A DNA stretch of 64,000 nucleotides from Bacteroidota bacterium (lineage in GTDB: Bacteria; Bacteroidota; Bacteroidia; Bacteroidales; B18-G4), in contig JABMQZ010000106.1 in the NCBI GenBank assembly GCA_013202965.1, positions 3,315 through 67,314 of the forward strand, written 5' to 3'. This document shows, in pieces, positions 47,702-64,000 of the stretch. Position 1 is the stretch's first letter, and each line of letters starts with the position of its first letter. A program made the translations under genes and the position numbers. A model generated the notes under the pieces. That model did no database searches and was not told the origin of the DNA. It was given only the letters and a program-made list of their open reading frames with translations.

Positions 47702-47890
47702 AACAAAATATGTGTTTTGGTTCTTGAATAATTGATTTTGCGAAAATGTTGCACAATATTAATGAAAAAATATGTAGAAATGCAAGATTCTCGTGTTATT
47801 TTAATTCTAAATAACATTCACTCATAGTAAAGGCAGAAAACGCAATAATTAGTACCTTTACAAGGTGTATCCATAATAATAATTTGCTAA

Positions 47891-50800
47891 ATGGAAAAAC
47901 GAGATAGGCCGAACAAAGATTTGAAGCGATTGCAGGCGGAAGCCGGGGAGAGATTAAAAGAACTTGCTGCGATCAACCAGACCACACAGTTATTGAGTGA
48001 AGGCAAGACCGTTGAAGAAACCCTGGCCCGCATCGTTGATATTCTGCCACCGGCATGGCAATACCCGGAATATACAGTTGCACGCATAGTTTTTGGTAAA
48101 CTCATATTTACCAGTGCGAATTTCATGCCTACAAACTGGAAGCAGCAACAGGCTTTTGAAACCATCGATGGCATTAAAGGCTCTATTGAAATATTCTACA
48201 TACGGGAGTTCCCCGACCTGGATGAAGGCCCTTTCATGGCGGAAGAAAGACAGCTGATCAACAACCTTAGCGGCCTCATCACGGGATATCTTAACAGTCT
48301 GAAGGGGCGTACACTCTTAAAAGAAGAAAAAGACATTCCCGGAAAGAAAAGTCCGGATATCTTGCCAGACAAACCTCAGGTCTATAGTCGTCAGCTGCTT
48401 CAAAAGTTTCTTAATAAAAATAACTACGACCGTGATATCTACCACGACCTTATGCCATTTAAGGTCAAAGAGATCCTCCTGGTTGCCAACCTATATGATG
48501 CATACAGCATTGAAAAGGAAGGCCGGTTTTCGGAGCACGTCCTGGGTGAATATCATCAGCTGAGCCTGACTTCAATTCCAAGGATCACCGGTGTTTCAAA
48601 TGAACAGGAGGCGATGGAGCAATTGCGTTCCAAACATTTTGACCTCGTGATACTGATGATGGGTGCTGACAAGAAATCTCCCATTGGATTGAGCTGCCGG
48701 ATCAAGAAGGAATATTCATATATCCCTGTATTCCTTTTGCTGAATAATAACAGTGACATAGAGTACATATCACGGCGAAAAGCTTCCACCAAACATATTG
48801 ACAAAGTATTTGTCTGGAACGGAGAATCAAAGGTATTCTTTGCCATGATCAAGCATGTGGAGGACAGCATCAATGTTGAGAATGATACCAATATTGGCAT
48901 GGTACGGGTGATATTGCTGGTGGAAGATTCCCCTAAGTATTATTCCAGGTATCTCCCCATGCTGTACAATATCGTGCTGGAGCAAACCAGACATATCATT
49001 GATGACGTCAGCACCGATGAATTATACAAGGTTCTCAAACTCAGGGCAAGGCCAAAAATATTGCTGGCTTCCAATTACGAGGAAGCTGTTGATATCATTG
49101 ATAAATACAAAGACTATCTCCTGTGTCTTATCACGGATGTGAAGTTCGAAAGGAATGGAAAAGAAGAACCCCAGGCAGGCCTGGATCTGGTGAAATATTT
49201 AAGGGAAAATACCAGGCATCTGCCCATCATCATACAGTCATCTGAGGAAGCCAATGCAGATAAAGCGTATAAACTGAAATCTACTTTTATCAATAAGAAT
49301 TCTGAAAGTCTTTCACAGGATTTTAAGAGTTTTATTACACATTATCTCGGCTTTGGTAATTTTATTTACCGCAACGATAAAGGACAGGTTATTGCTGTGG
49401 CAAAATCGCTTAAAGAATTTGAGAGGTTGCTTAAAACCATTCCGGATGAATCGCTTATCCATCATGCAAGAAAAGATCAGTTCTCCTTATGGTTGATGGC
49501 CAGGGGAGAGATACAGGCAGCCAAGATCCTTAGCCCGCATAAAGTCACTGATTTCGGAAGTCCACAGAAGATCAGGGAATATCTGCTTGAGATTATCTCC
49601 AAGTTCAGGAATGAGCAGGAGAGGGGCAAAATCGTTCCCTTTGAAAAATCGGCCATCACCGACGATTCCAATATTGTTGCACTGATGGAGGGTTCCCTTG
49701 GAGGAAAAGGCCGGGGAATCGCCTTCATCAATACCTTGATCTATAATTATGATTTCAGTCAGCAACTCCCCGGCATTCATATAAAAGCTCCGAAAACAGT
49801 TTTAATAGGCACCGAAGAGTTTGAATATTTCATGGAACGAAATGGCCTGACAGAATTGATCTTAAATGAAAAAGATTATTCAAAGATCAAAAAGGCATTT
49901 CTCAAGTCCCGCCTTACAGAAACCATGATCAAAAGATTAAAGATGGTGCTCGTCGATTTCAAAAAACCGATCGCCATAAGGTCATCCGGACTGTTTGAGG
50001 ATTCGCTGATGCAGCCATTTGCCGGAATATTTGAAACTTTTCTTTTGCCAAACAGCCACCCCGATCCCAAAGTGCGCCTGCAGCAGGCCATGGATGCCAT
50101 AAAAATGGTATATGCCAGTGTGTATTCAGAAATGGCCCGCGGCTATGTGGAAGCCGTCCATTATAAGATCGAAGAGGAAAAGATGGCTGTGGTCATTCAG
50201 GAAGTTGTAGGAAATCAGTATGATCATTACTTTTACCCGCATATCAGTGGTGCAGCCCAGTCATTTAATTATTACCCGGTATCGCACATGAAACCTGAAG
50301 AGGGATTTGTTGTAGCCGCTGTCGGACTGGGAAAATACGTTGTGGAGGGTGAAAAAGCATTCCGTTTTTCTCCAAAGTATCCTGAAATAGAGATCAACAG
50401 CCCCAAAGACCAGTATAAAAACTCACAGCTGCAATTTTTTGCTGTCGACCTGGAGAAAAAAGAACCGAATCTCCTGGAAGGCGATATCGCAGGACTGGCC
50501 CGGCTGGATATAGATGAAGCGGAAAAACAGGGAACCCTCAAACATTGCGCTTCTGTTTATAATCCCGATAATGACCAGATTCTGCCGGGGCTGACCCATC
50601 CCGGCCCACGCATTGTGAATTTTGCCAATATCCTTAAATATAAGTATATTCCACTTGCGCAAACGATCGAAGTTGTCCTTGATGTCGTGAAAGAAGCACT
50701 GGGATCTCCTGTGGAAATTGAATTTGCTGTCGACCTGAACAAAGATAAAAACGGACTGGCATCTTTTTACCTCTTACAGATCAAACCACTGCTCGGGAGT

Positions 50801-51349
50801 GCATCCGACTATAATGTCAATCTGGATAAGATCAAAAAGGAAAGTATTCTGATGTATTCCGAAAAAGGGATGGGCAATGGTATCATTGAGGATATCGAAG
50901 ATGTGATTTATGTTGATCAGTCGACTTTCGATAAAGCGGATACTGTCGAAATTGCGGAGGAAGTGAACAAACTGAATACCTTGATGGTTGCTGATAAGCG
51001 GAAATATATTCTGATTGGGCCGGGCCGTTGGGGAACACGTGACCGCTGGATCGGGATACCTGTCAACTGGCCTCAGATCTCAAATGCAGGCATCATCATT
51101 GAAACAAGTCTTGAAGATTTTCCATTGGATGCTTCTTCAGGATCACACTTTTTTCACAATGTCACCTCCATGAACGTCGGATATTTCTCTGTTCAGCCTG
51201 AGTTCGCGAACAGCTACATCAGGTATGATATTCTTGCCGGGCAGAAACTGATCAGTGAAATGAAATACGTGAAGCATATTCGTTTCAAAAAGCCATTGAA
51301 AGTCAGGATGGATGGAAAAAAACGGATTTCAGTGATCACCCTTGAATGA
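47891..51349 (+). CDS. Multidomain protein: N-terminal sensor-like domain + two receiver-like domains + PEP/pyruvate-binding (PPDK_N ATP-grasp) domain + conserved C-terminal domain
   Basis: Sensor-like part: LKELAAINQ...ILPPAWQYPEYTVARIVFG...IEIFY...DEGPFMAEERQLINNL. REC-like parts: KEILLVANLYD... and RVILLVEDSPKY... ATP-grasp signature: GSLGGKGRGIAFIN...IRSSGLFED. No phosphohistidine TSHAA-type motif was seen. Confidence 0.65.
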   Translation: MEKRDRPNKDLKRLQAEAGERLKELAAINQTTQLLSEGKTVEETLARIVDILPPAWQYPEYTVARIVFGKLIFTSANFMPTNWKQQQAFETIDGIKGSIEIFYIREFPDLDEGPFMAEERQLINNLSGLITGYLNSLKGRTLLKEEKDIPGKKSPDILPDKPQVYSRQLLQKFLNKNNYDRDIYHDLMPFKVKEILLVANLYDAYSIEKEGRFSEHVLGEYHQLSLTSIPRITGVSNEQEAMEQLRSKHFDLVILMMGADKKSPIGLSCRIKKEYSYIPVFLLLNNNSDIEYISRRKASTKHIDKVFVWNGESKVFFAMIKHVEDSINVENDTNIGMVRVILLVEDSPKYYSRYLPMLYNIVLEQTRHIIDDVSTDELYKVLKLRARPKILLASNYEEAVDIIDKYKDYLLCLITDVKFERNGKEEPQAGLDLVKYLRENTRHLPIIIQSSEEANADKAYKLKSTFINKNSESLSQDFKSFITHYLGFGNFIYRNDKGQVIAVAKSLKEFERLLKTIPDESLIHHARKDQFSLWLMARGEIQAAKILSPHKVTDFGSPQKIREYLLEIISKFRNEQERGKIVPFEKSAITDDSNIVALMEGSLGGKGRGIAFINTLIYNYDFSQQLPGIHIKAPKTVLIGTEEFEYFMERNGLTELILNEKDYSKIKKAFLKSRLTETMIKRLKMVLVDFKKPIAIRSSGLFEDSLMQPFAGIFETFLLPNSHPDPKVRLQQAMDAIKMVYASVYSEMARGYVEAVHYKIEEEKMAVVIQEVVGNQYDHYFYPHISGAAQSFNYYPVSHMKPEEGFVVAAVGLGKYVVEGEKAFRFSPKYPEIEINSPKDQYKNSQLQFFAVDLEKKEPNLLEGDIAGLARLDIDEAEKQGTLKHCASVYNPDNDQILPGLTHPGPRIVNFANILKYKYIPLAQTIEVVLDVVKEALGSPVEIEFAVDLNKDKNGLASFYLLQIKPLLGSASDYNVNLDKIKKESILMYSEKGMGNGIIEDIEDVIYVDQSTFDKADTVEIAEEVNKLNTLMVADKRKYILIGPGRWGTRDRWIGIPVNWPQISNAGIIIETSLEDFPLDASSGSHFFHNVTSMNVGYFSVQPEFANSYIRYDILAGQKLISEMKYVKHIRFKKPLKVRMDGKKRISVITLE

Positions 51350-51703: not shown

Positions 51704-52564
51704 ATGTATGAACTGATCTCTCTCAAGCTGAAATGCCCTGTTTGCGGGGAGTCGCTGATGGATGACAGCCACCTTGTCGACAATGAAACCAGTATTATGC
51801 TGAATGTGGAAATGGCTGGAAAGAAAGGCGAGATCCGGCTGAGCTCAATATATGGCAGCTATAACTATGTTACGGATGTAGAGATGCCTAAGGGAGAAGT
51901 TGCTAAATTCAGTTGCCCTCACTGTAAAACACAAATTACCTCGGACTCAGAATGCCTTTCCTGTGGTGCCAACATGGTACCCTTTTACCTTGACATGGGA
52001 GGGAAGGTCACGATTTGCTCAAGAAGTGGCTGTAAAAATCATATCGTCGAGTTTGAAGACCTCTCGATTGCATTGAAAAAACTCTACCAGGAATACGGGC
52101 TGGCCGGCAAGGATGACTTCAAGCCTGAGCGTAAAATCACTCCGGTTGAGCAAGCGGTTGATGAAAATAAGGAAATCATCGAATCAGGAACATTTCTGAA
52201 TGCCTATTGCCCGCATTGCGATAAGAGCCTCCTGGAAGATGGCATGCTCAAACTGAAAATCCACAATGGTGAAGAAGGCTTCCTGATGCTCAGCCCATAT
52301 CTGAACGTATTTACCTCCAAGTCGACTATTTTTCTTGCCGAAGAAAAAACTGTTAAGGATATACGTTGCTGCCATTGTAACCAAAGCCTGATCTCTGCAG
52401 ATAAAACATGTGAAAAATGCGACTCTTCAGTGGCAAAGATCGCTATTGGAGCCAGAACAAAACTGATCGATTTCTATATCTGTACAAAGAAAGGTTGCCG
52501 CTGGCATGGCCTCAGTTCGGATGACTTGATTGATATCCGCCTGCAGGACAGCCTTGAGTGGTAA
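51704..52564 (+). CDS. Cys-rich protein made of two copies of an 8-Cys/1-His CxxC module (paralogue 1), function unknown
   Basis: Module 1: C11xxC14...C71xxC74-x9-C84xxC87-x17-C105x4C110xxH113. Module 2: C169xxC172...C222xxC225-x10-C236xxC239-x20-C260x4C265xxH268. Paralogues lie at 59776 and at the N-terminus of the 61501 ORF. Confidence 0.8.
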   Translation: MYELISLKLKCPVCGESLMDDSHLVDNETSIMLNVEMAGKKGEIRLSSIYGSYNYVTDVEMPKGEVAKFSCPHCKTQITSDSECLSCGANMVPFYLDMGGKVTICSRSGCKNHIVEFEDLSIALKKLYQEYGLAGKDDFKPERKITPVEQAVDENKEIIESGTFLNAYCPHCDKSLLEDGMLKLKIHNGEEGFLMLSPYLNVFTSKSTIFLAEEKTVKDIRCCHCNQSLISADKTCEKCDSSVAKIAIGARTKLIDFYICTKKGCRWHGLSSDDLIDIRLQDSLEW

Positions 52565-52567
52565 GTT

Positions 52568-53962
52568 CTACCATTCACCACTTGTAAGATATTCATGAAT
52601 TCCTTTTGCTGCGGTTTTACCAGCACCCATTGCTAATATTACAGTTGCTGCGCCGGTTGCAACATCACCCCCGGCAAAAACACCTCTTTTTGTAGTTTTA
52701 CCTGTTTGCAGATCGGTAACAATGGTTTCTTTTCTTGTGATTTCCAGGTCTGGTGTAGTAGCCGGAATTAATGGATTGGGGCTGTTACCGATAGCAATAA
52801 TTACAATATCTACAGGTATTTTAATATTTGAGCCATCAATAGGAACAGGCCTTCTTCTGCCCGAATCATCCGGTTCGCCAAGTTCCATCCTGATACATTC
52901 AGCTTCTTTTACCCATCCGTTTTCGCCATGAAAAGCAATCGGGTTGGTTAATAGCTGAAAATTAACACCTTCTTCTTCGGCATGGTGAATTTCCTCATTC
53001 CTGGCAGGCATCTGCTCTTTTGCACGGCGATAAATCAATATGGATTCTTCCGCACCAAGACGTAGGGCAGTCCTCGCACAATCCATGGCTACATTGCCTC
53101 CGCCAACTGTGGCAACTCTTTTCCCTTTTGCAATGGGGGTTTTGTATTTCGGGAATAAATAAGCTTTCATCAAATTTGCCCTGGTAAGGTATTCATTGGC
53201 AGAATAAAGTCTGTTTAGGTTCTCACCCGGAATTCCCATAAACCAGGGTAAACCGGCACCTGTGCCAAGAAAAATTGCATCGTATTCCTCCAGTAATTCA
53301 TCAAGGCTTTTGATCATGCCGATCACTGTATCCGTATGTAATCTAACCCCCATTTTAGAAAGAAAGTCGATCTCTTTGAATACAATTGCTTTGGGAAGTC
53401 TGAATTCGGGTATTCCATACACCAGCACACCACCCGGCTCATGCAGGGCCTCAAAAATTTCAACCGTGTGCCCAAATCTAACCAGGTCTGCTGCTGCAGT
53501 GATACCAGCAGGACCGGCACCAACAACAGCCACTTTCTTTCCTGTGGATTTTGGCAGTACCGGTATTTCTATTTCAATATTTTCTCTTTCCCAATCTGCC
53601 AGGAAACGTTCTAACCTGCCAATAGCAACAGGCTCATATTTCTTCCCCAGGATGCATTCTCTTTCACACTGTTCTTCCTGAGGGCAAACCCGCCCACAGA
53701 TAGCCGGTAAGATATTTTTCTCCTTTAACCTGACAATCCCCTCTTTGAATTTTTTTTCAGCTATAAAACCTATAAAACCTGGAATATCTATTTCTACCGG
53801 ACAACCATCGACACATAATGGCTTTTTGCACTGAAGACAACGATGTGCTTCTGCTATGGCTTCTTCAGGGGAATAACCATAAGGAACCTCATTGAAGTTT
53901 TTAATCCGTTCTTCCGGTGGTTGCTCACGCATGGGATTTTTATTTGGAATAATCTTACCCAT
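52568..53962 (-). CDS. GltD/NfnB/SudA-like NAD(P)H oxidoreductase subunit (2x[4Fe-4S] + FAD + NAD(P)H)
   Basis: RCLQCKKPLCVDGCPVEIDIPGFI, CGRVCPQEEQCE, VAVVGAGPAGITAA and VFAGGDVATGAATVILAMGAGK. Confidence 0.85.
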   Translation of the reverse strand: MGKIIPNKNPMREQPPEERIKNFNEVPYGYSPEEAIAEAHRCLQCKKPLCVDGCPVEIDIPGFIGFIAEKKFKEGIVRLKEKNILPAICGRVCPQEEQCERECILGKKYEPVAIGRLERFLADWERENIEIEIPVLPKSTGKKVAVVGAGPAGITAAADLVRFGHTVEIFEALHEPGGVLVYGIPEFRLPKAIVFKEIDFLSKMGVRLHTDTVIGMIKSLDELLEEYDAIFLGTGAGLPWFMGIPGENLNRLYSANEYLTRANLMKAYLFPKYKTPIAKGKRVATVGGGNVAMDCARTALRLGAEESILIYRRAKEQMPARNEEIHHAEEEGVNFQLLTNPIAFHGENGWVKEAECIRMELGEPDDSGRRRPVPIDGSNIKIPVDIVIIAIGNSPNPLIPATTPDLEITRKETIVTDLQTGKTTKRGVFAGGDVATGAATVILAMGAGKTAAKGIHEYLTSGEW

Positions 53963-53963
53963 A

Positions 53964-54779
53964 TCACAACCTTTCTTTTGATATTATTTCTTCTTCAATG
54001 TATGCTTTCCTTCGGTCAAGAACGATATCCCAGTTTATCTTGTGACCATCGAAATGAGGGCCGTCAACACAGGCAAATTTTGTTTCTCCACCTACCTCAA
54101 GCCTGCAGGCACCACACATACCGGTTCCATCTATCATAACAGGATTCATGCTAACAATGGTATTAATACCATAAGGCTTGGTAGTATGGGCTATCTTGTA
54201 CATCATATAAGTACAGCCAACTGCAAAAACCATATCATAATATTCTCCCGATTCCAGGTTCTCTTTTAGCAGGTCATGTGAATGACCTTTTGAGCCGAGA
54301 GATCCGTCAGTTGTACTGTAACGAACTTCATCAGCCACAGATTCAAGTTTTTCATTCCAGTATAGAAGAAACCGGCTTCTGGCCTCCGAATAGCAAACAA
54401 CCTTGTTACCACATTCTTTCAAAGCTTTAGCCAAAGGATATATCGCACCGATTCCATAACAACCTCCAACTAAACCGACAGTTCCGTATTTTTTTATTTC
54501 AAAAGATCTTCCAAGCGGGCCGGTGAATGAAAAAATCTCATCACCGGTATTTAATGCAGCCAGGCTTTGGGTTCCTGCACCAATCTCAAGAAAAAGGATG
54601 CTGATTGTTCCTTGTTCATTATCCCAATCAGCAATGGTAATAGGGATGCGTTCAGCATATTTGTCCGGAATAACAATAACAAATTGACCCGCCCTGGCCT
54701 TCTTTGCAATATCCGGTGCCGCAACAATAAACTCATGGATATTTGGGACAATATGCTCTTTATGTAAAATCTTAACCAT
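53964..54779 (-). CDS. NfnA/SudB/PyrK-like FAD/NAD-binding subunit with C-terminal [2Fe-2S]
   Basis: GQFVIV...RIPITIAD, GPLG, LVGGCYGIGAIYP and GTGMCGACRLEVGGETKFACVDGP. Confidence 0.85.
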   Translation of the reverse strand: MVKILHKEHIVPNIHEFIVAAPDIAKKARAGQFVIVIPDKYAERIPITIADWDNEQGTISILFLEIGAGTQSLAALNTGDEIFSFTGPLGRSFEIKKYGTVGLVGGCYGIGAIYPLAKALKECGNKVVCYSEARSRFLLYWNEKLESVADEVRYSTTDGSLGSKGHSHDLLKENLESGEYYDMVFAVGCTYMMYKIAHTTKPYGINTIVSMNPVMIDGTGMCGACRLEVGGETKFACVDGPHFDGHKINWDIVLDRRKAYIEEEIISKERL

Positions 54780-57129
54780 GTTTCCCTCCTTTTTTATCGA
54801 TAAGCTGTTTCATGTCAGGGATTAGTTTTGACATGGAATTCCCCTGATAGAGAAAATAATCTGGTTCGGGAATCATTTCTATTTTACGCTTCTTCAATGG
54901 AATTTTAATATCAGGCATGGATAACACAAATTTTGATGTTTTCCTGCTGGTTTTATCAATTGACAAATCGAGCTTAGCCGTAATTTCCTCATATATTTCA
55001 TTCGTTTTTCTATACTGAAAGCTTTTATTTTTGAGTTTTCGACTTATATTAGAAAGTATTTGCCATGTTGGCTTTATGAATTCAGGTGCATGAACAGCCG
55101 GATTTATCTGTTTTAAATTTCTTTCAATATTAATAATATGACCATTTGATTCAGTAAAACAATATGCAGGTAATAAGATATCAGCATATTTGGATGTTTC
55201 GGTTATGAACATATTCTGCTGAACAAAAAATTCAAGTTCATTCAATTTTTCATGATCCGGCAGATCACCTTTGAGGAATAATGATTTAAAATTATTCCCC
55301 GGAAGATTACTTATCATTTCATCAGTTGATAATCCTGATACAGGTGAAATATCTATACCCCAAGCCTCTGACCATTTTTTTTCCCCATTTCTGACTTCCA
55401 GAAATCCGGGTAAATATTCCGGGTGCATACCGGTGTAAGTGGCTCCAAAACGATTTCCGTCGTCAACCAAAAACATCATCCCGCAATCAGCGAATTTATT
55501 TAAGGCAAAATGGATATTTGAAAGTAAATTAAAATTATCATTACTTGATGACGATTTAAACAAGGTATCACCTGCAATTATCAGTATTTTTTTTGCTGGT
55601 GCAAGCGATTCGATGATTTTCCTGATCTGTGCCTGTTTGATGCCTGTTGCCGTGGATGCATGTTTTTTATCAATAAGCTTTAAAGCATCGGATATGTCTT
55701 TAGGGAATTTAATGTTTTGCGCGGTCTTGAGGTCTTTTAGTATCTGAAGAAGAAAAATATTTTCTGAGCCCGGATGATATATTATCCGTTCATTCGAAAA
55801 CTGGTATGTTCTGTTTAAATGGGAATGAGCCGTAATAATTTTAGCATCATGATGATATGCTTTCCTGACCCTGTTTTCTATTATGGGATGTGATACCGAA
55901 GCGTTTGATCCAATTATAAAAATAGCGTCAAATCCAATAATTTCATCAATTCCGACAGGCTGAAACCCATGTACTTTTTTAAACAGAGATCGGTCATTGT
56001 AAGTGGGGGAAAGGTCTATATTGTTAGATCCCATAACTACTCTGCAAAATTTTTGCAATGCATAGGAGTTTTCAATCGTATCGTGGGCAGAACCGATTAT
56101 TCCAAAATCATTTCCACTGAATTCTTTAAAATGTTTTGTTATAATATCGATGGCCTGATCCCAGGTTATTTCAAGCCAGGCGCCATTTTTATTGATAAGG
56201 GGTTTTATGATTCGTTCCGGGTGATGTGTAATATCTGCCGGTATAAATTTCCCGCGGATGCATAATTGATCCGGTTCGGTCCTTTTTCCCGGCCTGGGAC
56301 CGATGTTAACAATCCGGTTGCCTTTTGTGTTGATGTTCATCCTGCAACCTACAGAACAAAGTATACATGTAGATGTTGTTGAATCGGTCGGGACACCTAC
56401 CCAACTGCCCATTTTTTCAGAAAGGGAACCAGTAGGGCATACATCTACACATGCACCACAATATTCACAACCTGCTTCTATTTGGGATTCACCAAAAGCA
56501 GTGCCAACCAGGGTAGAATTACCACGCTGCACAAAAGCCAGAACCCCGCTATATCTTTCTTCATTACATATTCTAACACATCTGCCGCAAAGGATACATA
56601 AATTATAATCCAAATCGTAAAAGGGATTATTCTTGATGGCTTGAACATTTCGATAGGTTATGGGGAACCTGATATCTTTTAGGTCAAGATATTCAACCAG
56701 GTCCTGTAGCTCACAACCTCCATTGCTTGTGCAGAAGTTACAACCGGTAGTAACAGTAACCTTTCTTGTGGTATACATGAAATCCTGACATTCCTTTTTA
56801 TCGTTGCATATCAGGCATGAATATGGATGTTCCGAAAGAATGAGCTCAAGAATTTCACGTCTGATGGATTGCAACTCAGGAGATTTAGTGCTTATTTCCA
56901 TCTCATTGGTGACCGGAGTTGTACATGCGGTTGGATAACCTATCATGTTTTTTATCTCCACAATACATAAACGGCACCCACCATAGCTTTTCAAACCTTT
57001 AAGATAACAAAGGGTGGGAATATATATCCCTGCGGACGTAGCCGCATCCAGTACCGTTGAACCTTCAGGAACCTGAATTTGTTTCCCGTCGATTTCAACT
57101 GAAATATATATACCCTTATCTGATTTCAT
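54772..57129 (-). CDS. NuoG-like Fe-S subunit with a molybdopterin-oxidoreductase-fold domain that looks catalytically degenerate
   Basis: N-terminal 2Fe-2S ferredoxin fold (TLCYLKGLKSYGGCRLCIVEI), HPYSCLICNDKKECQ, CILCGRCVRIC, CEYCGACVDVCPTG and Molybdop_Fe4S4 (CILCSVGCRMN...LCIRGKF). No H-cluster motif. No Cys/Sec-His at the FDH active-site position (it reads NNIDLSPTYND). Confidence 0.75.
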   Translation of the reverse strand: MKSDKGIYISVEIDGKQIQVPEGSTVLDAATSAGIYIPTLCYLKGLKSYGGCRLCIVEIKNMIGYPTACTTPVTNEMEISTKSPELQSIRREILELILSEHPYSCLICNDKKECQDFMYTTRKVTVTTGCNFCTSNGGCELQDLVEYLDLKDIRFPITYRNVQAIKNNPFYDLDYNLCILCGRCVRICNEERYSGVLAFVQRGNSTLVGTAFGESQIEAGCEYCGACVDVCPTGSLSEKMGSWVGVPTDSTTSTCILCSVGCRMNINTKGNRIVNIGPRPGKRTEPDQLCIRGKFIPADITHHPERIIKPLINKNGAWLEITWDQAIDIITKHFKEFSGNDFGIIGSAHDTIENSYALQKFCRVVMGSNNIDLSPTYNDRSLFKKVHGFQPVGIDEIIGFDAIFIIGSNASVSHPIIENRVRKAYHHDAKIITAHSHLNRTYQFSNERIIYHPGSENIFLLQILKDLKTAQNIKFPKDISDALKLIDKKHASTATGIKQAQIRKIIESLAPAKKILIIAGDTLFKSSSSNDNFNLLSNIHFALNKFADCGMMFLVDDGNRFGATYTGMHPEYLPGFLEVRNGEKKWSEAWGIDISPVSGLSTDEMISNLPGNNFKSLFLKGDLPDHEKLNELEFFVQQNMFITETSKYADILLPAYCFTESNGHIINIERNLKQINPAVHAPEFIKPTWQILSNISRKLKNKSFQYRKTNEIYEEITAKLDLSIDKTSRKTSKFVLSMPDIKIPLKKRKIEMIPEPDYFLYQGNSMSKLIPDMKQLIDKKGGKHG

Positions 57130-57161
57130 GTTATTTATTATGACAGTTTAATCATAGATTA

Positions 57162-59030
57162 TTAAGATACTATTATAATTGCATCGCCGGCGATAGCATC
57201 AAACCTGCAAATTTCATAACAGGCCCTGCATTTAATACACTTTTCAGGATCAAGGTTATGTGGTTCGCTTCTGGGGCCTGTAATAGCACCGGTCGGACAA
57301 ACTTCCACACAGCGCTGACAACCTGTACATTTCTCCTTTATCACCCTGTATTCCACCAGGTCGCGACAAACTGCCGCAACACAACGTTTGTCTTCAATAT
57401 GTTCTTGATATTCACGGTAAAAATATTTAAGTGTTGTGAGAACCGGGTTGGGAGCAGTTTGTCCTAAGCCGCAAAGAGATCCGTTTTTTACGGTTTTTGC
57501 AATATTTTCAAGTGTTGCAAGGTCATCGATGCTTCCAGTGCCTTTTGTGAATTTCTCAAGTATCTCTACCATCCTTTTGGTTCCGATACGGCATGGCGTG
57601 CATTTGCCACAACTTTCTTTACTGGTAAAATTTAAAAAATACTTGGCCACATCCACCATGCATGAATTTTCGTCCATAACGATCAATCCACCTGAACCCA
57701 TAATCGATCCGGCCTCAGAGAGTGATTCATAATCGATAGGCAGATCAATATGTTCTTCGGTCAGGCAACCACCTGAAGGCCCTCCGGTTTGAACAGCCTT
57801 AAAAGGTTTTATTGTCCCCCCTCCAATATCATAAATTATTTCACGCAATGTAATACCGAGAGGAACTTCAATTAATCCTGTACGCCTTACCTTTCCGACA
57901 AGGGCAAATGTTTTAGTTCCTTTGCTGTTTGCGGTTCCATACTGATTGTACCAGTCACCACCATTTCTCAGAATATTTGGGATTGTTCCCAGGGTTTCAA
58001 CATTATTGATTGTTGTTGGATTACCATTCAATCCTGATAAAGTCGGATATGGTGGCCTGCTTCTGGGCATGCCCCTTTCTCCTTCAATAGAGGCGATCAA
58101 TGCAGTTTCTTCACCACAAACAAAAGCACCTGCCCCTTCTTTAAGTTTTATTTCAAGATTGAATCCGCTATCAAGAATATTCCTGCCAAGTAATCCGGCC
58201 TGTTTCATCTGGGCAATAGCAATGTTAAGTCGTTCAATCGCCAGGGGATACTCGGCCCTGATATAAATGTATGCCTGGTTTGCACCTAAAGCATAAGCTG
58301 CAATGATCATGCCCTCAAGCAATGCAAAAGGATCTCCTTCTATAAGGGATCTGTTCATGAAAGCTCCCGGATCACCTTCATCAGCATTGCATATCAGATA
58401 TTTTATCTTTCCTTTAGCTTCCCGGCAGAATTGCCATTTTTTGTATGTTGGGAATCCGGCACCACCTCTTCCTCTTAAGCCGGATATCCTTATTTCTTCA
58501 ATTACTTCTTCCGGTCCTTTTTCAAAGGCATTGATCAGCCCTGAAAAACCATCCCTTGCAATGTAATGCATGATGTTTTCAGGATCAACAATGCCACAAT
58601 TCCGTAGTACAATACGTTTCTGGTATTTCAGCATAGGAAGTTCCCAGAATGATTTTGTGCCATTAATTGTTTCGATTCCATCACCCAGGTGCGCCAAAGG
58701 TTTGAGTTTGGATTCATCACTGAAGGCAAACTCTTTGATGATCTTTTTAGCCCTGTCAGCATCAACATTATTAAAAGTAAAACGCGATGATCCGGGTTTT
58801 TGGACATCGAGCAAAGGTTCAAAATAACACGGTCCGATACACCCCACTTTTATGGTTTGGAACTTATATTTTGAATTATCCTTGATTTTCTGAATGCTTT
58901 TCCAGACATCACCTGCTCCTGATGCCAATCCGCAAGTTCCCATGCCAACATACACTACCGGATCGGAACTATGCTGAAGCATTTCCCATTGTTCTTGTGC
59001 GGTTTTTTGCAGCTGTTCAAAATCATTCAT
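57162..59030 (-). CDS. NuoF/HydB-like NADH-binding flavoprotein with extra Fe-S domains (Bfu-type B subunit)
   Basis: GLRGRGGAGFPTYKKW, NADEGDPGAF and ESCGKCTPCRIGT. The N-terminal thioredoxin-like region has GTCGLASG...GCIGPCY. The C-terminal region has CTGCQRCVEVCPTG and CIKCRACYEIC. Confidence 0.9.
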   Translation of the reverse strand: MNDFEQLQKTAQEQWEMLQHSSDPVVYVGMGTCGLASGAGDVWKSIQKIKDNSKYKFQTIKVGCIGPCYFEPLLDVQKPGSSRFTFNNVDADRAKKIIKEFAFSDESKLKPLAHLGDGIETINGTKSFWELPMLKYQKRIVLRNCGIVDPENIMHYIARDGFSGLINAFEKGPEEVIEEIRISGLRGRGGAGFPTYKKWQFCREAKGKIKYLICNADEGDPGAFMNRSLIEGDPFALLEGMIIAAYALGANQAYIYIRAEYPLAIERLNIAIAQMKQAGLLGRNILDSGFNLEIKLKEGAGAFVCGEETALIASIEGERGMPRSRPPYPTLSGLNGNPTTINNVETLGTIPNILRNGGDWYNQYGTANSKGTKTFALVGKVRRTGLIEVPLGITLREIIYDIGGGTIKPFKAVQTGGPSGGCLTEEHIDLPIDYESLSEAGSIMGSGGLIVMDENSCMVDVAKYFLNFTSKESCGKCTPCRIGTKRMVEILEKFTKGTGSIDDLATLENIAKTVKNGSLCGLGQTAPNPVLTTLKYFYREYQEHIEDKRCVAAVCRDLVEYRVIKEKCTGCQRCVEVCPTGAITGPRSEPHNLDPEKCIKCRACYEICRFDAIAGDAIIIVS

Positions 59031-59475
59031 AATTACTCAAAATCTGACGTAGTTTAATAACCGACAATCTGCTGTGTATATCGTTATCAACCATCATTAC
59101 CGGTGCAATGGCACAACATCCCAAACATGCAACCCTTTCAAGATCAAATCTGCCGTCTTCCGTAGTACTACCGGGTGTTATCCCAATTTCCATCTGTAAT
59201 GCACTCAGTATAAAATCCCCACCCTGAACATGACAGGCTGTTCCCAGGCAGATCTTTATCGAATGTCTGCCGGGTGGATTAAACTTGAATTGAGAGTAAA
59301 AAGTGGCAACACCATAAATTGTGCTACAGGATATATTCAAATATTCGGAAATTTCTCTAATGGTGTTAGATGGAATATATCCTTCCTGATGCTGAACATG
59401 TTGAAGAATAGGAATCAGGTCTCCTTTACTGCATTCAGGAAAGTGTTTACCAAGCGTATTTAACAAACTGCTCAT
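59023..59475 (-). CDS. NuoE/HydC-like thioredoxin-fold [2Fe-2S] subunit
   Basis: CLGTACHVQGG...CLGCCAIAPVMMV. It overlaps the NuoF-like gene by 8 nt. Confidence 0.9.
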   Translation of the reverse strand: MSSLLNTLGKHFPECSKGDLIPILQHVQHQEGYIPSNTIREISEYLNISCSTIYGVATFYSQFKFNPPGRHSIKICLGTACHVQGGDFILSALQMEIGITPGSTTEDGRFDLERVACLGCCAIAPVMMVDNDIHSRLSVIKLRQILSNYE

Positions 59476-59775
59476 TGTATATTCGAATTTGAGTTTTATC
59501 CAAATTACTTTTATTACAATAAATCCACAATTTGATTTCTGTCAGCTATAACATATTTTAATCAATAAATATAAGAATAATTTATAATGTGAAGAAATTA
59601 TTTAAATTAACTGATATCTTTAATGAGCCATAAAATCTATTTATAATAATTATAAATACAGGGCAATTTATTTTTATACAGCATACTATTTTTTTTTTTA
59701 ATATAATTGCAAACATTAACTTAACTGAGGCTGTGCACATGATTCCACTTAATTGCCTCATAAATATAGTAAATT

Positions 59776-60630
59776 ATGGACGATATTCTAAATGATTTTA
59801 TTTTTTTACGGGTAAAATGCCCGATCTGTGATCATTCCCTTATGGATCAGGAAAACTATGTTGATGGTAAACCGGGAATTAAATTGTTTGTTGAATCTGC
59901 AGAGAATAAAGGAATTATCGTATTGAGTGCTATTTATGAAAGTTATAATTACAGGTGTGATATTCCGATCGAAAGTGGTGATATAGTTACTTTCTCCTGT
60001 CCGCATTGCGGGAAAGTAATTACAAGTAAAACCGAATGCGAATATTGTGAAGCAGCTATGGTACCTCTTGAACTGGATATTGGAGGAAAGGCAAGCATTT
60101 GCTCAAGAAGTGGTTGTAAAGGGCATTTCCTGGAATTTGAAGATGTCTTGCTTGCTTTTAATAAGCTTTACCAGCTTGGTGATTATAAAGGTTCAATTCC
60201 GGAAGGATTAAAAGAAAACGGAGAATCAACAGAAATTATTAAAACAGGGACTTTCCTTAATCCCTATTGTCCGAAATGCAATAAGTCTCTTATAAAAGAT
60301 GGATTGATCACACTGAAAATCATTAACGACAGGAATGAGGAAGGTCTTGTGTTTCTAAGCCCATTCCTGAATGTGTTCACTTCCAGGTCAACAGTATTTT
60401 TAAAGGAGGATCAAACAGTTAAGGATATTATCTGCACCCATTGCAATACAAGTATAATCGATTTAGACAGGAATTGTGAACAATGCGGATCACCTGTCGC
60501 TAAAATAAAAGTGAGTGCCCGCACCAAATTCATCGACTTTTATATATGTTCAAAAAAAGGATGCAGGTGGCATGGGCTGAGTAATGAAGATCTTCATGAA
60601 ATTGATCTTGAAGACAGTATGGAATGGTAA
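59776..60630 (+). CDS. Cys-rich double CxxC-module protein (paralogue 2), function unknown
   Basis: Same motif spacing as paralogue 1: C15xxC18...C75xxC78-x9-C88xxC91-x17-C109x4C114xxH117, and C165xxC168...C220xxC223-x10-C234xxC237-x20-C258x4C263xxH266. About 55% identical by eye, with the same C-terminal DS(L/M)EW. Confidence 0.8.
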   Translation: MDDILNDFIFLRVKCPICDHSLMDQENYVDGKPGIKLFVESAENKGIIVLSAIYESYNYRCDIPIESGDIVTFSCPHCGKVITSKTECEYCEAAMVPLELDIGGKASICSRSGCKGHFLEFEDVLLAFNKLYQLGDYKGSIPEGLKENGESTEIIKTGTFLNPYCPKCNKSLIKDGLITLKIINDRNEEGLVFLSPFLNVFTSRSTVFLKEDQTVKDIICTHCNTSIIDLDRNCEQCGSPVAKIKVSARTKFIDFYICSKKGCRWHGLSNEDLHEIDLEDSMEW

Positions 60631-60664
60631 ATAATGATATTGAGGAAAGATAAAAAAAGTAGAT

Positions 60665-61489
60665 ATGTTTCAGATAAAGAAAAAAGAAACAATGGCAAAG
60701 GGGACGATCGTTAGATTTGATATTGATGCCCCTAAAATTGCAAAAAAGTTAAAACCGGGACAATTTGTCATTATCAGGGTAAATGAGACAGGAGAAAGAA
60801 TTCCTCTAACAGTTGCCGATAAGGATGCATTTGCAGGGATCATAACTATTATCTTTCAGGTTGTCGGGAAAACAACTGCATTGATGAGATCGCTCAATGA
60901 GGGCGATTTTTTATTGGATGTTGTCGGGCCATTAGGTAAACCAGCAGAAGTTGATAATATTGGTACTGTTTTAATGGTTGGCGGAGGTACGGGTGTGGCA
61001 ATTCTTCATCATGTGGCAAAAGCATTTCATGAAGCAGGAAATTATGTTATCGGTATTATGGGTGCCAAGGAAAAAGATATGCTCATCCTTGAAAATGAAA
61101 TGATAGCCATATGCGATGACCTTGTTGTTACAACTGATGACGGGAGTTATGGGGAAAGAGGATTTGTTACCCAGCCACTTGAGAAATACCTGAATGAACG
61201 TCATGATATAAAATTGGTTTATACCATTGGTCCGATTATTATGATGAAGAATGTTGTGAAGCTGACAAAAAAGTTTAATGTTCCGACTTTAGTTAGCTTA
61301 AATCCTATTATGATAGATGGAACAGGTATGTGTGGAGGCTGCAGGGTAAAGGTGAATAACGAAACCAAGTTCTGTTGTGTTGACGGTCCCGACTTTGATG
61401 GTTACCAGGTTGACTTTGATGAATTGCTTAAAAGGAATTCGATGTATTTACAGGATGAGAAAGATTCATTGTTGTTTTCAATCAAGTAA
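60665..61489 (+). CDS. Second NfnA/PyrK-like FAD/[2Fe-2S] subunit
   Basis: GQFVIIRVNETGERIPLTVAD, GPLG, MVGGGTGVAILH and GTGMCGGCRVKVNNETKFCCVDGP. An alternative start exists at 60692. Confidence 0.85.
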   Translation: MFQIKKKETMAKGTIVRFDIDAPKIAKKLKPGQFVIIRVNETGERIPLTVADKDAFAGIITIIFQVVGKTTALMRSLNEGDFLLDVVGPLGKPAEVDNIGTVLMVGGGTGVAILHHVAKAFHEAGNYVIGIMGAKEKDMLILENEMIAICDDLVVTTDDGSYGERGFVTQPLEKYLNERHDIKLVYTIGPIIMMKNVVKLTKKFNVPTLVSLNPIMIDGTGMCGGCRVKVNNETKFCCVDGPDFDGYQVDFDELLKRNSMYLQDEKDSLLFSIK

Positions 61490-61500
61490 AACGAAGAAAT

Positions 61501-63330
61501 ATGTTAGAACAGGATATAAGATATTTAAAGTATAAAACCTATTTAAGTTTTTACTGCCCGCATTGTAGCAACACCTTCAATGTGGAAAGGGCACATGAAA
61601 AGTCATTGATATTCAATGCAAAATGGAAAAATGAAGACCTGGTGTTGAAGCTCAGTCCTTTTCTCGATGTTTTTGATATTAAAACATCTATTGAAATGCC
61701 ACAGGATGAGGTTCTGGATGATCTGTTCTGCCCGCATTGTAAGCAAAGTATTATTGATCCTCATGTTCATTGCGATGAATGTGGTTCCAAGGTCGGTAAA
61801 GCAATAGTATCAGCATATGCCAAGCTCATTCCGTTTTATTTTTGTTTGAAAAATGGATGTGAATGGCACGGCATTACAAAAGAGGACGAAAAGAAAATCA
61901 AGTTAAAAATTCCTCGTCAGCTTATGCCTGAGCAGGATCAGAAATTAAGGGTTAATAATTTTCAGGAAGTACCCTATGGTTATACTACCGAACTGGCAAT
62001 GCTTGAAGCCGGCAGATGCCTTCAGTGTAAAAAACCGAAGTGTGTTGAAGGATGCCCTGTAAATATTGACATACCCGGATTTATTGAATTAATAACCCAG
62101 GAGAAATTTACTGAGGCAGTACACAAAATTAAGGAAACCAACGTTTTTCCGGCAATTTGCGGACGTGTCTGCCCCCAGGAATCCCAGTGTGAAGTATTAT
62201 GTATTCTTGGTAGAAAAGATGAACCCGTAGCCATAGGTCGATTGGAACGTTTTGTTGCAGACTATGAAAGGAAAATGGATCTGGTTGAAATACCTGAAAT
62301 TAAAAAAAATACAGGTAAGAAGATAGCTGTTATCGGTTCAGGCCCTGGTGGTTTAACAGTTGCTGCCGATATGCGTATGCTTGGCTATGAGGTTACCATT
62401 TTTGAAGCCCTGCATGAATCAGGTGGAGTATTAACGTATGGTATTCCTGAATTCAGGCTTCCCAAATCAATTGTGCAATCTGAAATTGATTATTTAATAA
62501 AACTGGGTGTCAGGATAGAACTGAATCATATCATTGGGAATATCCTTACGGTTGATGAACTACTTGAACATTTTGACGCAGTTTATATTGGTGTAGGTGC
62601 AGGATTGCCCTGGTTTATGAGCCTTGAAGGTGAAAGCCTGGGGAATGTATTCTCGGCCAATGAATATCTCACCCGTATGAACCTGATGAAAGCCTATAAA
62701 TTTCCCGAGTATGACACACCTATGCCACATGGCAATCATATTGCCGTGATCGGTGGCGGAAATGTGGCCATGGATTGTGCCAGAACGGCAAAGCGTACCG
62801 GTGCATCAGAAGTGACTATCGTATACCGAAGATCACGCCATGAATTACCGGCCAGGACCGAAGAAGTGCACCATGCAGAAGAAGAAGGTATAAATTTTAA
62901 GCTTCTTACATCTCCTACCCGGTATATCGGCACAGACTCAAGTATAATCAAGTCCATAGAATGTATTAGAATGGAACTTGGCGAACCAGATGCTTCAGGA
63001 AGAAGAAGACCGATACCTATTGAGGGTTCCAACTTTATCATGGATTGCGATATGGCAATTGTTGCCATAGGAAACGGTCCCAATCCGATATTGTTCCAGT
63101 CAACTCCGGATTTAAAACTTAATAAAAGGGGCTATATCGAAGTAAATCCTGATACTATGGAAACCTCCAAAGAGTTTGTATATGCCGGCGGCGATATTGT
63201 AACCGGAGCTGCTACCGTTATTCTGGCAATGGGTGCCGGAAGGATCGCTGCCACAGCTATGCATAAAAAGCTGACAGCCATACAGGAGAAGGCGAAAAAG
63301 AAGGTGGTGCCTAAGAAGAAAAGCGAATAG
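61501..63330 (+). CDS. Fusion protein: single CxxC module (aa ~15-125) + GltD/NfnB-like oxidoreductase (aa ~145-609)
   Basis: N-terminal module: C19xxC22...C77xxC80-x10-C91xxC94-x20-C115x4C120xxH123, which has module-2 spacing. LSPFLDVFDIKTSI and FYFCLKNGCEWHG align with the free paralogues. The rest is NfnB-like: RCLQCKKPKCVEGCPVNIDIPGFI, IAVIGSGPGGLTVA and YAGGDIVTGAATVILAMGAG. Confidence 0.85.
   Translation: MLEQDIRYLKYKTYLSFYCPHCSNTFNVERAHEKSLIFNAKWKNEDLVLKLSPFLDVFDIKTSIEMPQDEVLDDLFCPHCKQSIIDPHVHCDECGSKVGKAIVSAYAKLIPFYFCLKNGCEWHGITKEDEKKIKLKIPRQLMPEQDQKLRVNNFQEVPYGYTTELAMLEAGRCLQCKKPKCVEGCPVNIDIPGFIELITQEKFTEAVHKIKETNVFPAICGRVCPQESQCEVLCILGRKDEPVAIGRLERFVADYERKMDLVEIPEIKKNTGKKIAVIGSGPGGLTVAADMRMLGYEVTIFEALHESGGVLTYGIPEFRLPKSIVQSEIDYLIKLGVRIELNHIIGNILTVDELLEHFDAVYIGVGAGLPWFMSLEGESLGNVFSANEYLTRMNLMKAYKFPEYDTPMPHGNHIAVIGGGNVAMDCARTAKRTGASEVTIVYRRSRHELPARTEEVHHAEEEGINFKLLTSPTRYIGTDSSIIKSIECIRMELGEPDASGRRRPIPIEGSNFIMDCDMAIVAIGNGPNPILFQSTPDLKLNKRGYIEVNPDTMETSKEFVYAGGDIVTGAATVILAMGAGRIAATAMHKKLTAIQEKAKKKVVPKKKSE
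61555..61869 (+). other. Extent of the CxxC module (first Cys to the conserved His) inside the fusion ORF
   Basis: Coordinates derived from residue numbers C19 to H123 of the 61501 ORF. Confidence 0.7.
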
Positions 63331-63510
63331 ATCGAACGATTGAACGATATCCGATTTTTCTCATCATAATGAAATCTGCATTTTGCAATGAGTATTTCAT
63401 CCTCTTTCACTTGATAAATAAGTTTGTGAAAGAATAAAATTCAAAATTTATTCGGAGGTTATTAGTTTAACCGCATGTAAGATAAGAAAATCTCAGATAT
63501 AAGTAAGGTT

Positions 63511-63598
63511 CTCGCAAAGACCGCCTAGATACACGCAAAGATCACAAAGAACATTTCTAATCTTTGCGGGCTTAGCGCTTTTTTGCATACTTTGCGTG
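63511..63598. repeat. Palindromic GCAAAG/CTTTGC element (REP-like)
   Basis: CTCGCAAAGA (63511) and CACGCAAAG (63532) face TCTTTGCGGG (63561) and CTTTGCGTG (63590). Only one copy lies in this window, so whether it is dispersed in the genome is unverified. Confidence 0.5.
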
Positions 63599-63613
63599 GA
63601 AGAATTAAAATAG

Positions 63614-63669
63614 GGGTGAGGCCTGGGGTGTGGGGCATGAGGCATGAGGTTTGCGAATTGCTGGCTGAG
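63614..63669. repeat. Tandem heptamer array (GGGTGAG GCCTGGG GTGTGGG GCATGAG GCATGAG GTTTGCG AATTGCT GGCTGAG)
   Basis: Read directly, with the GnnTGrG phase kept over 8 units. Confidence 0.7.
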
Positions 63670-63715
63670 GGGTTTTCTCACTTTGTTCGAAATGACAACA
63701 TCTAATTTTTAGAGA

Positions 63716-63756
63716 GGGAAATGGCGGGATGCGCACAGCGCGTCCCGCCATTTCCC
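63716..63756. repeat. Near-perfect 19-bp-stem palindrome/hairpin (GGGAAATGGCGGGATGCGC-ACA-GCGCGTCCCGCCATTTCCC)
   Basis: 14 bp of perfect outer stem, one G-T wobble, 4 bp of inner GC stem and a 3-nt loop. Confidence 0.85.
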
Positions 63757-63899
63757 CTTGTTTAGATAAGGATTTTGTCTTCTCGAAAGAACCCCGATGG
63801 TGATCGGGGTGATTGAGAGATCCCCTCAGCTTACTTATGCTAAGAAAAATATTTTACCGGACACCACTGATTCCGGAATCACTATTCATGGGGAATTCG

Positions 63900-63907
63900 T
63901 ATTTTTG
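63900..63907 (+). promoter_or_regulatory. Candidate -7 box (TATTTTTG) ahead of an ORF that starts at 63986 and runs off the window
   Basis: TAnnTTTG match. It is followed by hairpin element copy 2 (63944-63967) and an ATG at 63986. Confidence 0.3.
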
Positions 63908-63943
63908 ATGGGAAGAAACGAAGAATTAGTGTTAAATAAAATG

Positions 63944-63967
63944 ATTCCTCGTGGCTTGCCACTGAGG
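63944..63967 (+). repeat. Second copy of the ATTCCTCGTGGCTTGC hairpin element
   Basis: A 16-nt exact match to 16128-16143. It folds as CCTC-GTGGC-TT-GCCAC-T-GAGG. Confidence 0.4.
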
Positions 63968-64000
63968 ATAATCAATTTAAGAAAATGAAATTAATCACCA

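Follow-up and report, generated by a model that had tools for sequence, protein, structure and literature searches.

The window analysed here, a stretch of 64,000 nucleotides from a Bacteroidota bacterium (assembly GCA_013202965.1, contig JABMQZ010000106.1), encodes a form of NfnAB in which the large subunit, NfnB, carries an additional cysteine-rich domain at its N-terminus. NfnAB is, to our knowledge, the simplest and most studied flavin-based electron-bifurcating enzyme, and current descriptions give it two subunits and five cofactors. One unbroken reading frame of 609 amino acids (61501..63330, plus strand) joins a module with eight cysteines and one histidine (Cys8His) to a complete NfnB, and a free protein built from two such modules is encoded in the same operon. 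The conserved domain and the free protein together point to a previously undescribed accessory part of NfnAB.

The module occupies residues 1–124 of the fusion protein and shows the pattern C19xxC22, C77xxC80-x10-C91xxC94 and C115x4C120xxH123, with the TGC codon of C19 at 61555-61557. Two free proteins encoded in the window, A and B, contain two modules each. Residues 1–135 of the fusion are 36–39% identical to the C-terminal module of both (BLASTP E 1e-32 to 1e-34) and share all eight cysteines and the histidine with it; for residues 1–124 the identity is 37–39%. The identity to the N-terminal module of the free proteins is just 20–28%. An earlier note, made from the letters of this DNA alone, had described the first ~125 amino acids as a single unit of the second-module type; the Cys/His pattern given there is exact, and the poorer match of the N-terminal free module shows that the label is right. 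The same note had placed a Lys-rich linker ahead of NfnB. A true linker exists and measures about 12–15 residues, but the segment PRQLMPEQ is the NfnB N-terminus and not a spacer, because homology to 4ylf_B begins at residue 140. Residue M142 of the fusion aligns with Met11, near the N-terminus, of an unfused NfnB-like paralogue encoded elsewhere in the window. The connector between module and Fe-S domain has a constant length and its second half already belongs to NfnB; it is therefore not a floppy spacer. At its other end, the fusion closes with a Lys-rich tail, IQEKAKKKVVPKKKSE (63277-63327), which the unfused paralogue of the window lacks. The mean pairwise identity of this C-terminal tail among fusions is only 13%.

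Residues 142–592 are a complete, genuine NfnB, i.e., the large, NADPH- and FAD-binding subunit with two [4Fe-4S] clusters; the earlier note had described this part as a complete NfnB-like protein. They are 57% identical to NfnB of Thermotoga maritima. Specifically, Fer4_20 (PF14691) is found at residues 150–259 (E 2.5e-43) and Pyr_redox_2 (PF07992) at residues 274–580 (E 1.3e-34), and the fusion scores 574.7 bits on TIGR01316, for which the cut-off is 471.75. The PDB sequence search returned 4ylf_B, which is the T. maritima NfnB (E 3.1e-168), and 5jca_L (E 4.7e-153), and Foldseek gave 57% and 54% identity and TMt values of 0.83 and 0.81 for these two chains. The cluster cysteines C173, C176, C181, C185, C220, C224, C230 and C234 are invariant in 77 aligned fusions of the Bacteroidales type. 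Directly upstream of the fusion lies a gene for the small subunit NfnA, a PyrK-like protein type with FAD and an Asp-ligated [2Fe-2S] cluster. ERxPxT and DGTGMCGxCR-type motifs have been defined for NfnA (PMC6405883), and the translation of 60665..61489 holds GERIPLT and DGTGMCGGCR-x10-CV.

The fusion recurs far beyond this contig. With each GTDB species represented by one genome, a scan recovered nine Bacteroidales/Bacteroidota metagenome-assembled genomes (MAGs) with a module 78–97% identical, the frame being uninterrupted in all nine (598–614 codons), and 44 more metagenome loci encode the fusion. When the full-length protein was searched, the best 120 matches were all fusions of 593–613 amino acids (71–96% identical, 97–100% query coverage). 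The module starts within residues 1–4 in each of these 120 proteins, and each has the spacing C-x2-C-x54-C-x2-C-x10-C-x2-C-x20-C-x4-C-x2-H-x49-C, whose last position is the first NfnB cluster cysteine. The distance of 49 residues from H123 to C173 is fixed even in P0247, a 54%-identical fusion of high G+C content. Names given by the sources are 'NADPH-dependent glutamate synthase' (NCBI) and 'glutamate synthase small chain' (JGI).

Within the module, the nine ligand-type residues are invariant in the 77 aligned fusions, and so are Y18, N27, L51-S52-P53, L55-D56, F58, P78, L109, G119, W122 and G124. Residues P20 and H21 of C19-P-H-C22 are at least 90% conserved in this alignment, and the connector contributes the invariant residues K136, P138, R139 and P143–D146. 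The mean pairwise identity among fusions amounts to 62% in the module, 77% in residues 125–149 and 80% in the NfnB core. For the module, the ratio of non-synonymous to synonymous substitution rates (dN/dS) is 0.23 in comparison with the closest MAG and 0.06 with the next closest, which indicates purifying selection.

A search with the module only (144 amino acids, word-indexed) returned four fragments and had suggested that the fusion is rare. This was rejected as a sensitivity artefact, as the full-length query and the genome scan showed otherwise. The profile used in an exhaustive search of representatives took in about 210 NfnB C-terminal columns, and most of its 12,422 matches are ordinary GltD-like proteins. 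Rescoring of the top 150 with a local hidden Markov model (HMM) of the module alone left about 14 full-length representatives of the free family and one fusion, P0247.

Three short contigs of low coverage contain a broken frame. In L003 (JGI 3300021179 scaffold, 1693-2130), a 44-nucleotide deletion in the module removes the C91xxC94 region and shifts the frame; the junction of module and NfnB is still in frame, the scaffold holds runs of N, and an assembly error is possible. The fusion gene of L001 (Logan SRR21545384, 927-1478) has three in-frame stops (TAG, TAG, TAA). Two of these align with Gln or Lys of homologues and the third is an extra codon; each could arise from a Gln codon by a single C-to-T change. 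The gene caller rendered TAG as Gln in this contig, and the nfnA gene just upstream is free of in-frame stops. A decaying gene, sequencing damage or recoding could be behind these stops. The third contig is L004 (P0001), where the frame diverges late. All three were judged to be contig-specific lesions or errors and not evidence against the fusion. They are, together with M142, the points in favour of the fusion being an artefact in which a frameshift, a mis-join or a mis-called start conceals a separate CxxC protein and a normal NfnB. M142 is invariant in the 77 fusions and coincides with Met11 of the unfused paralogue, but it is replaced by Lys in P0247. Independent assemblies yield 120 protein clusters with an unbroken frame, which is likewise seen in the window, in nine MAGs and in 44 metagenome loci, and the junction is in frame even in L003. 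This bears out the continuity of the frame read in the earlier note, excludes a frameshift or assembly join, and leaves the artefact with a negligible probability.

The free proteins A and B are 56% identical to each other, and the first and second halves within each share 24–27% identity. Both halves are copies of one unit, so each free protein is an internal duplication. With the local module HMM, a total of five modules is recognised in three proteins of the window. The free family comprises at least 184 database clusters of about 262–320 amino acids, mainly from Bacteroidales MAGs, which are unnamed, labelled 'hypothetical' or wrongly named from zinc-motif matches. Among 110 aligned free proteins, 16 cysteines, two histidines and a C-terminal Trp are invariant. 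All 110 end in [ED][DNS]Sx[ED]W-COOH (60613-60630 and 52547-52564 in the window), as do P0257 and P0259 of high G+C content, and this acidic-Trp tail stands where the fusion runs on into NfnB. The conserved tail resembles a docking peptide.

For the gene context, 80 metagenome loci with a free gene were fetched and annotated locally, 51 of which could be judged. The order free gene, nfnA, fused nfnB was found in 44 of the 80, and a further 18 show the free gene and nfnA before the contig ends. The free gene is convergent with an unfused nfnB–nfnA pair in three loci, as in the window at 51704-54779; four loci have at least 1.5 kb downstream of the free gene without nfn, and 11 are too short to judge. 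An nfnA–nfnB pair thus directly adjoins the free gene in 47 of the 51 judgeable loci, and where nfnB lies downstream in the same direction it is of the fused type (44/44). Most genomes keep the free protein beside the fusion in one operon, with three modules per NfnAB. Other arrangements exist in distant lineages of high G+C content. Loci L018 and L019 (67–69% G+C) contain nfnA and a 54%-identical fusion, with the free gene not nearby, and a hemerythrin gene lies upstream of the nfnA–fusion pair in L018. Locus L020 (61% G+C) contains nfnA, an unfused nfnB of 483 amino acids and, 20 nucleotides downstream, a free two-module gene. The parts are fused in some lineages and separate in L020 and in the window at 51704-53962, which is the pattern needed by a Rosetta-stone argument. 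The earlier note had taken the fusion to mean that the free CxxC proteins work physically with this oxidoreductase. That they work with it is supported by the adjacency in 47 of 51 loci, the alternative gene orders of L018, L019 and L020 and the purifying selection; a physical contact is presumed.

The second NfnB-like copy of the window had been noted as lacking the module and having a free gene next to it. Both points hold, but the neighbour is convergent. The stop codons of free gene A (plus strand) and the unfused nfnB-like gene (minus strand) are 3 nucleotides apart (52564-52568), and the two therefore cannot be co-transcribed. This layout recurs in L030, L041 and L043.

The pattern of conserved residues suggests that the module is probably a metal-binding domain. 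No curated family for it was found in Pfam or NCBIfam. The sole Pfam match of the fusion module is DUF7559, with 19.9 bits against a cut-off of 27. Free protein B reaches 27.8 bits on both Zn_ribbon_6 (cut-off 25) and DZR (cut-off 27.3), although no single stretch passes alone, and free protein A remains below all Pfam zinc-ribbon cut-offs. The borderline or sub-threshold Pfam matches are to DZR, Zn_ribbon_6, Zn_ribbon_3, HypA and the zinc-knuckle region of tRNA-synt_1g. Residues 37–111 of free protein B match positions 102–174 of 391 in PF09334 (23 bits, cut-off 20.1), and the top PDB sequence match of the module family is methionyl-tRNA synthetase (MetRS), at a non-significant E of 0.25. An identity as MetRS was rejected, as the class I catalytic domain is missing and only this portion of PF09334 is matched. 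For the latter reason, homologues labelled 'methionyl-tRNA synthetase' or 'class I tRNA ligase' by their sources are over-annotated. Foldseek of the free-protein model against the PDB gave nothing at E≤1e-3; the best matches, C-terminal zinc ribbons of topoisomerase I, are weak (E 8e-3, probability ≤0.35, TM-score 0.13–0.14). The AlphaFold2 model of the free protein, built from the 110-sequence alignment, has a predicted local distance difference test (pLDDT) score of 80 and shows two all-beta modules and a disordered linker. The module is likewise all-beta in the model of the fusion, where its pLDDT is about 80–92. C19xxC22, C77xxC80, C91xxC94 and C115x4C120 flank predicted beta strands and would form two CxxC knuckle pairs.

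In structurally studied relatives, low-potential electrons enter or leave through the N-terminal Fe-S domain of the GltD/NfnB fold. At this end, NfnAB exchanges electrons with a ferredoxin and glutamate synthase with its alpha subunit; in dihydropyrimidine dehydrogenase (DPD) the exchange is with the other protomer, and the situation is alike in StnABC/NfnABC. The comparison of NfnAB, glutamate synthase and DPD rests on the structures 4YLF, 6S6S and 1H7X, which all appeared among the PDB matches. Our proposal, whose chances we consider about even, is that the module is a structural metal domain which gives NfnB a docking or hand-off site at its ferredoxin end. NfnB would have gained, and stably kept, an N-terminal all-beta domain of ~124 residues that is paralogous to the second module of the free protein. 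Each module would bind two metal ions, one at an inner site made of the nested C77xxC80/C91xxC94 knuckle pair and one at an outer site made of C19xxC22 and C115x4C120 (and H123). Zinc would be the likeliest metal by analogy with zinc ribbons and the zinc knuckles of MetRS. The conserved connector of fixed length may keep the module beside the N-terminal Fe-S domain, where the fused module and the free two-module subunit could jointly provide a platform for docking or hand-off. Candidate partners are a ferredoxin, a flavodoxin or the Bfu-type NuoE/NuoF/StnC-like complex, whose genes are often direct neighbours. A domain at the same place is known from another lineage, in which the NfnB-like protein P0290 (607 amino acids) begins with a classical ferredoxin domain of the 2x[4Fe-4S] type. 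The fixed distance of the module, the ferredoxin domain of P0290 and the invariant tail of the free proteins make a docking or hand-off platform the most economical reading.

Several observations weigh against this proposal. Four of the 51 judgeable free genes have no nfn neighbour, and the number of modules per NfnAB varies between one, two and three by lineage, which a single fixed architecture does not readily explain. In the MAG L010 (JAUWPX010000020.1), nfnA and the fusion are present but no free two-module gene lies in the 6 kb upstream, which sets it apart from the closely related L012. AlphaFold2 models residues 137–160 of the fusion and much of its Fe-S domain with low confidence, at a predicted TM-score (pTM) of 0.63, and does not place the module confidently against NfnB. 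Furthermore, CPxC knuckles are equally typical of rubredoxins. The modules might alternatively be redox-active, with a rubredoxin-like Fe(Cys)4 or other iron site serving as a tethered carrier that extends the low-potential path of NfnB, and with the free protein as a dedicated multi-centre carrier, e.g., to a Bfu-type complex or to oxidative-stress enzymes. CxxC/CPxC knuckle pairs suit Fe(Cys)4 as well as zinc, the connector is rigid and conserved, and the module is N-terminal, directly ahead of the domain with two [4Fe-4S] clusters and at the position of the ferredoxin domain in P0290. The gene neighbourhood is also consistent with this, given the hemerythrin gene in L018 and the NuoE/NuoF/StnC-like (Bfu-type) genes that follow the fusion in 19 of 33 loci. 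We nevertheless regard redox-active modules as somewhat unlikely. No Pfam match to rubredoxin (PF00301) was obtained at E≤0.01, as opposed to several weak zinc-ribbon matches, rubredoxins do not appear among the Foldseek matches, and the MetRS knuckle, which is the closest analogue in sequence, is a structural zinc site. A bolder version, in which the three modules are redox-active centres that wire the NfnSL-type unit to the neighbouring Bfu-type complex, would imply that two different electron-bifurcating machines form a supercomplex, with a new class of Cys8His electron-transfer domain; this is distinctly improbable. The Bfu-type genes, of which the StnC-like one encodes ~1230 amino acids, elsewhere lie ahead of the free gene. 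They are absent in L018 and L020, and the complex therefore cannot be the sole partner.

Two regulatory roles were also weighed. As thiol or zinc redox switches, the modules would release their metal upon oxidation of the CxxC pairs and thereby switch off an oxygen-sensitive enzyme or alter its assembly, acting outside the electron path. The invariant cysteine pairs include C19-P-H-C22 with its conserved Pro and His, the organisms appear from their MAG sources to be anaerobes of anoxic habitats, and the domain seems dispensable for the core chemistry, with an unfused NfnB paralogue in the same genome. However, the predicted fold is all-beta and not thioredoxin-like, and CPxC is common in purely structural zinc ribbons, which renders a switch improbable. 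The CxxC proteins could also be zinc-ribbon regulators that bind nucleic acids, for instance as autoregulators of the operon, the fusion then coupling enzyme level or redox state to expression. Some homologues carry the source labels 'RNA-binding Zn-ribbon' and 'ssDNA-binding Zn-finger topoisomerase 1', and the zinc ribbons of topoisomerase I head the Foldseek matches. Yet these labels rest on sub-threshold motif matches, the Foldseek matches have the low scores given above, and a rigidly spaced covalent tie to an Fe-S domain is unusual for a DNA- or RNA-binding regulator. This role is highly unlikely, and the structural docking domain is the reading that we retain.

The positions of the fusion, its parts and the related genes of the window are compiled in Table 1.

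Table 1. Fusion gene, related genes and terminator-like site, in coordinates of the 64,000-nucleotide window.
Feature	Position	Strand	Remarks
Free two-module protein A, 286 aa	51704..52564	+	convergent with the unfused nfnB-like gene
Unfused NfnB-like paralogue, 464 aa	52568..53962	-	61% identical to fusion residues 142–593; without module
Second nfnA-like gene, 271 aa	53964..54779	-	NF004862 353 bits; partner of the unfused NfnB-like copy
Free two-module protein B, 284 aa	59776..60630	+	opens the operon; ends 34 nt ahead of nfnA
nfnA-like small subunit, 274 aa	60665..61489	+	11 nt upstream of the fusion; NF004862 391 bits, DHODB_Fe-S_bind E 1.5e-12
N-terminal 8-Cys+His module, residues 1–124	61501..61872	+	C19, C22, C77, C80, C91, C94, C115, C120, H123
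Conserved connector, residues 125–149	61873..61947	+	ITKEDEKKIKLKIPRQLMPEQDQKLR; second half is already the NfnB N-terminus
NfnB (NfnL/GltD-type) core, residues 150–592	61948..63276	+	two [4Fe-4S] motifs and FAD/NADPH domains
Variable Lys-rich C-terminal tail, residues 593–609, and stop codon	63277..63330	+	13% mean pairwise identity
Terminator-like, seemingly perfect 19-bp GC-rich hairpin with T-rich tail	63716..63756	+	sole such site in 59400-64000

No terminator-like site was found between 59776 and 63330, which fits a transcription unit of three genes. A scan for sigma-70 promoters performed no better than on shuffled sequences, and an Rfam scan of 63300-64000 gave nothing meaningful. The ~390 nucleotides 3' of the fusion contain just one open reading frame of 62 amino acids, on the minus strand, before the hairpin. 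Related MAGs have nuoE-like and nuoF-like genes at the position that corresponds to 63331-64000 of the window; no DNA similar to this segment was found downstream of the fusion in L005, the 97%-identical MAG.

A PPDK_N-like gene is located upstream of the free gene in 23 of the 38 loci with enough flanking sequence, often together with a gene for glutamate dehydrogenase. Ahead of free gene A, the window encodes at 46346-51349 a glutamate dehydrogenase (minus strand) and a PPDK_N protein of 1152 amino acids with a response-regulator-like segment (plus strand). On the other side of this free gene, 52568-59475 (minus strand) comprises NuoE, a NuoF-like protein and a NuoG/Fdh-like protein of 785 amino acids without a GltD insert, followed by the separate nfnA and nfnB. 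This looks like a 'split' Bfu–Nfn arrangement. Loci L015 and L017 instead encode a NuoG-like protein of 1230 amino acids with an embedded GltD domain (StnC/NfnABC type).

A large environmental Bacteroidales clade and at least two lineages of high G+C content encode a version of NfnAB with a strictly conserved Cys8His domain, and this variant comes with a dedicated two-module partner protein. Public annotation masks it by naming the fusions 'NADPH-dependent glutamate synthase' and listing the partner as a 'hypothetical protein'. Should the modules choose the recipient of low-potential electrons, or serve as carriers themselves, predictions of redox balance for these anaerobes would change, and the field would gain a new accessory domain that is easy to test. 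As purely structural zinc sites, they would be a modest addition to the domain repertoire of the family.

The closest known system is NfnAB itself, with 57% identity between fusion residues 142–592 and 4ylf_B, a TM-score of 0.83, all eight cluster cysteines and a canonical nfnA 11 nucleotides upstream. The characterised enzymes, however, lack the N-terminal Cys-rich domain and a third subunit. A survey of Nfn architectures from 2019 distinguished four patterns, A–D (split, two fused orders and a eukaryotic form), none of which includes the module (PMC6405883), and no paper in the literature searched links NfnAB to a zinc ribbon. The Bfu-type enzymes StnABC/NfnABC (8OH5, 9BOV, 9N5U) also contain a GltD/NfnB-like domain, and the other operon of the window has NuoE, NuoF and a NuoG-like gene beside nfnA and nfnB. 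The fusion differs from them in being a stand-alone NfnB and not a GltD domain embedded in a HydA/NuoG-like protein. The titles and abstracts of the two NfnABC structure papers do not mention a CxxC module (PMC11829005, PMC12018979), and a term search in the Bfu-family survey gave no occurrence of zinc (PMC9304861).

With zinc ribbons and the connective-peptide zinc knuckle of MetRS (PF09334), the module shares nested CxxC knuckles in a beta-rich insert. Those motifs lack its C-x4-C-x2-H element, whereas the module family lacks the synthetase catalytic domain, and the fusion module passes no zinc-ribbon threshold. P0290 and proteins of the AegA/YgfT type resemble the fusion in having an extra Cys-rich N-terminal domain ahead of Fer4_20. 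Their domain is a dicluster ferredoxin with the motif CxxCxxCxxxCP, whereas the fusion module is predicted to be all-beta, has a different motif and gives no Fer4 match.

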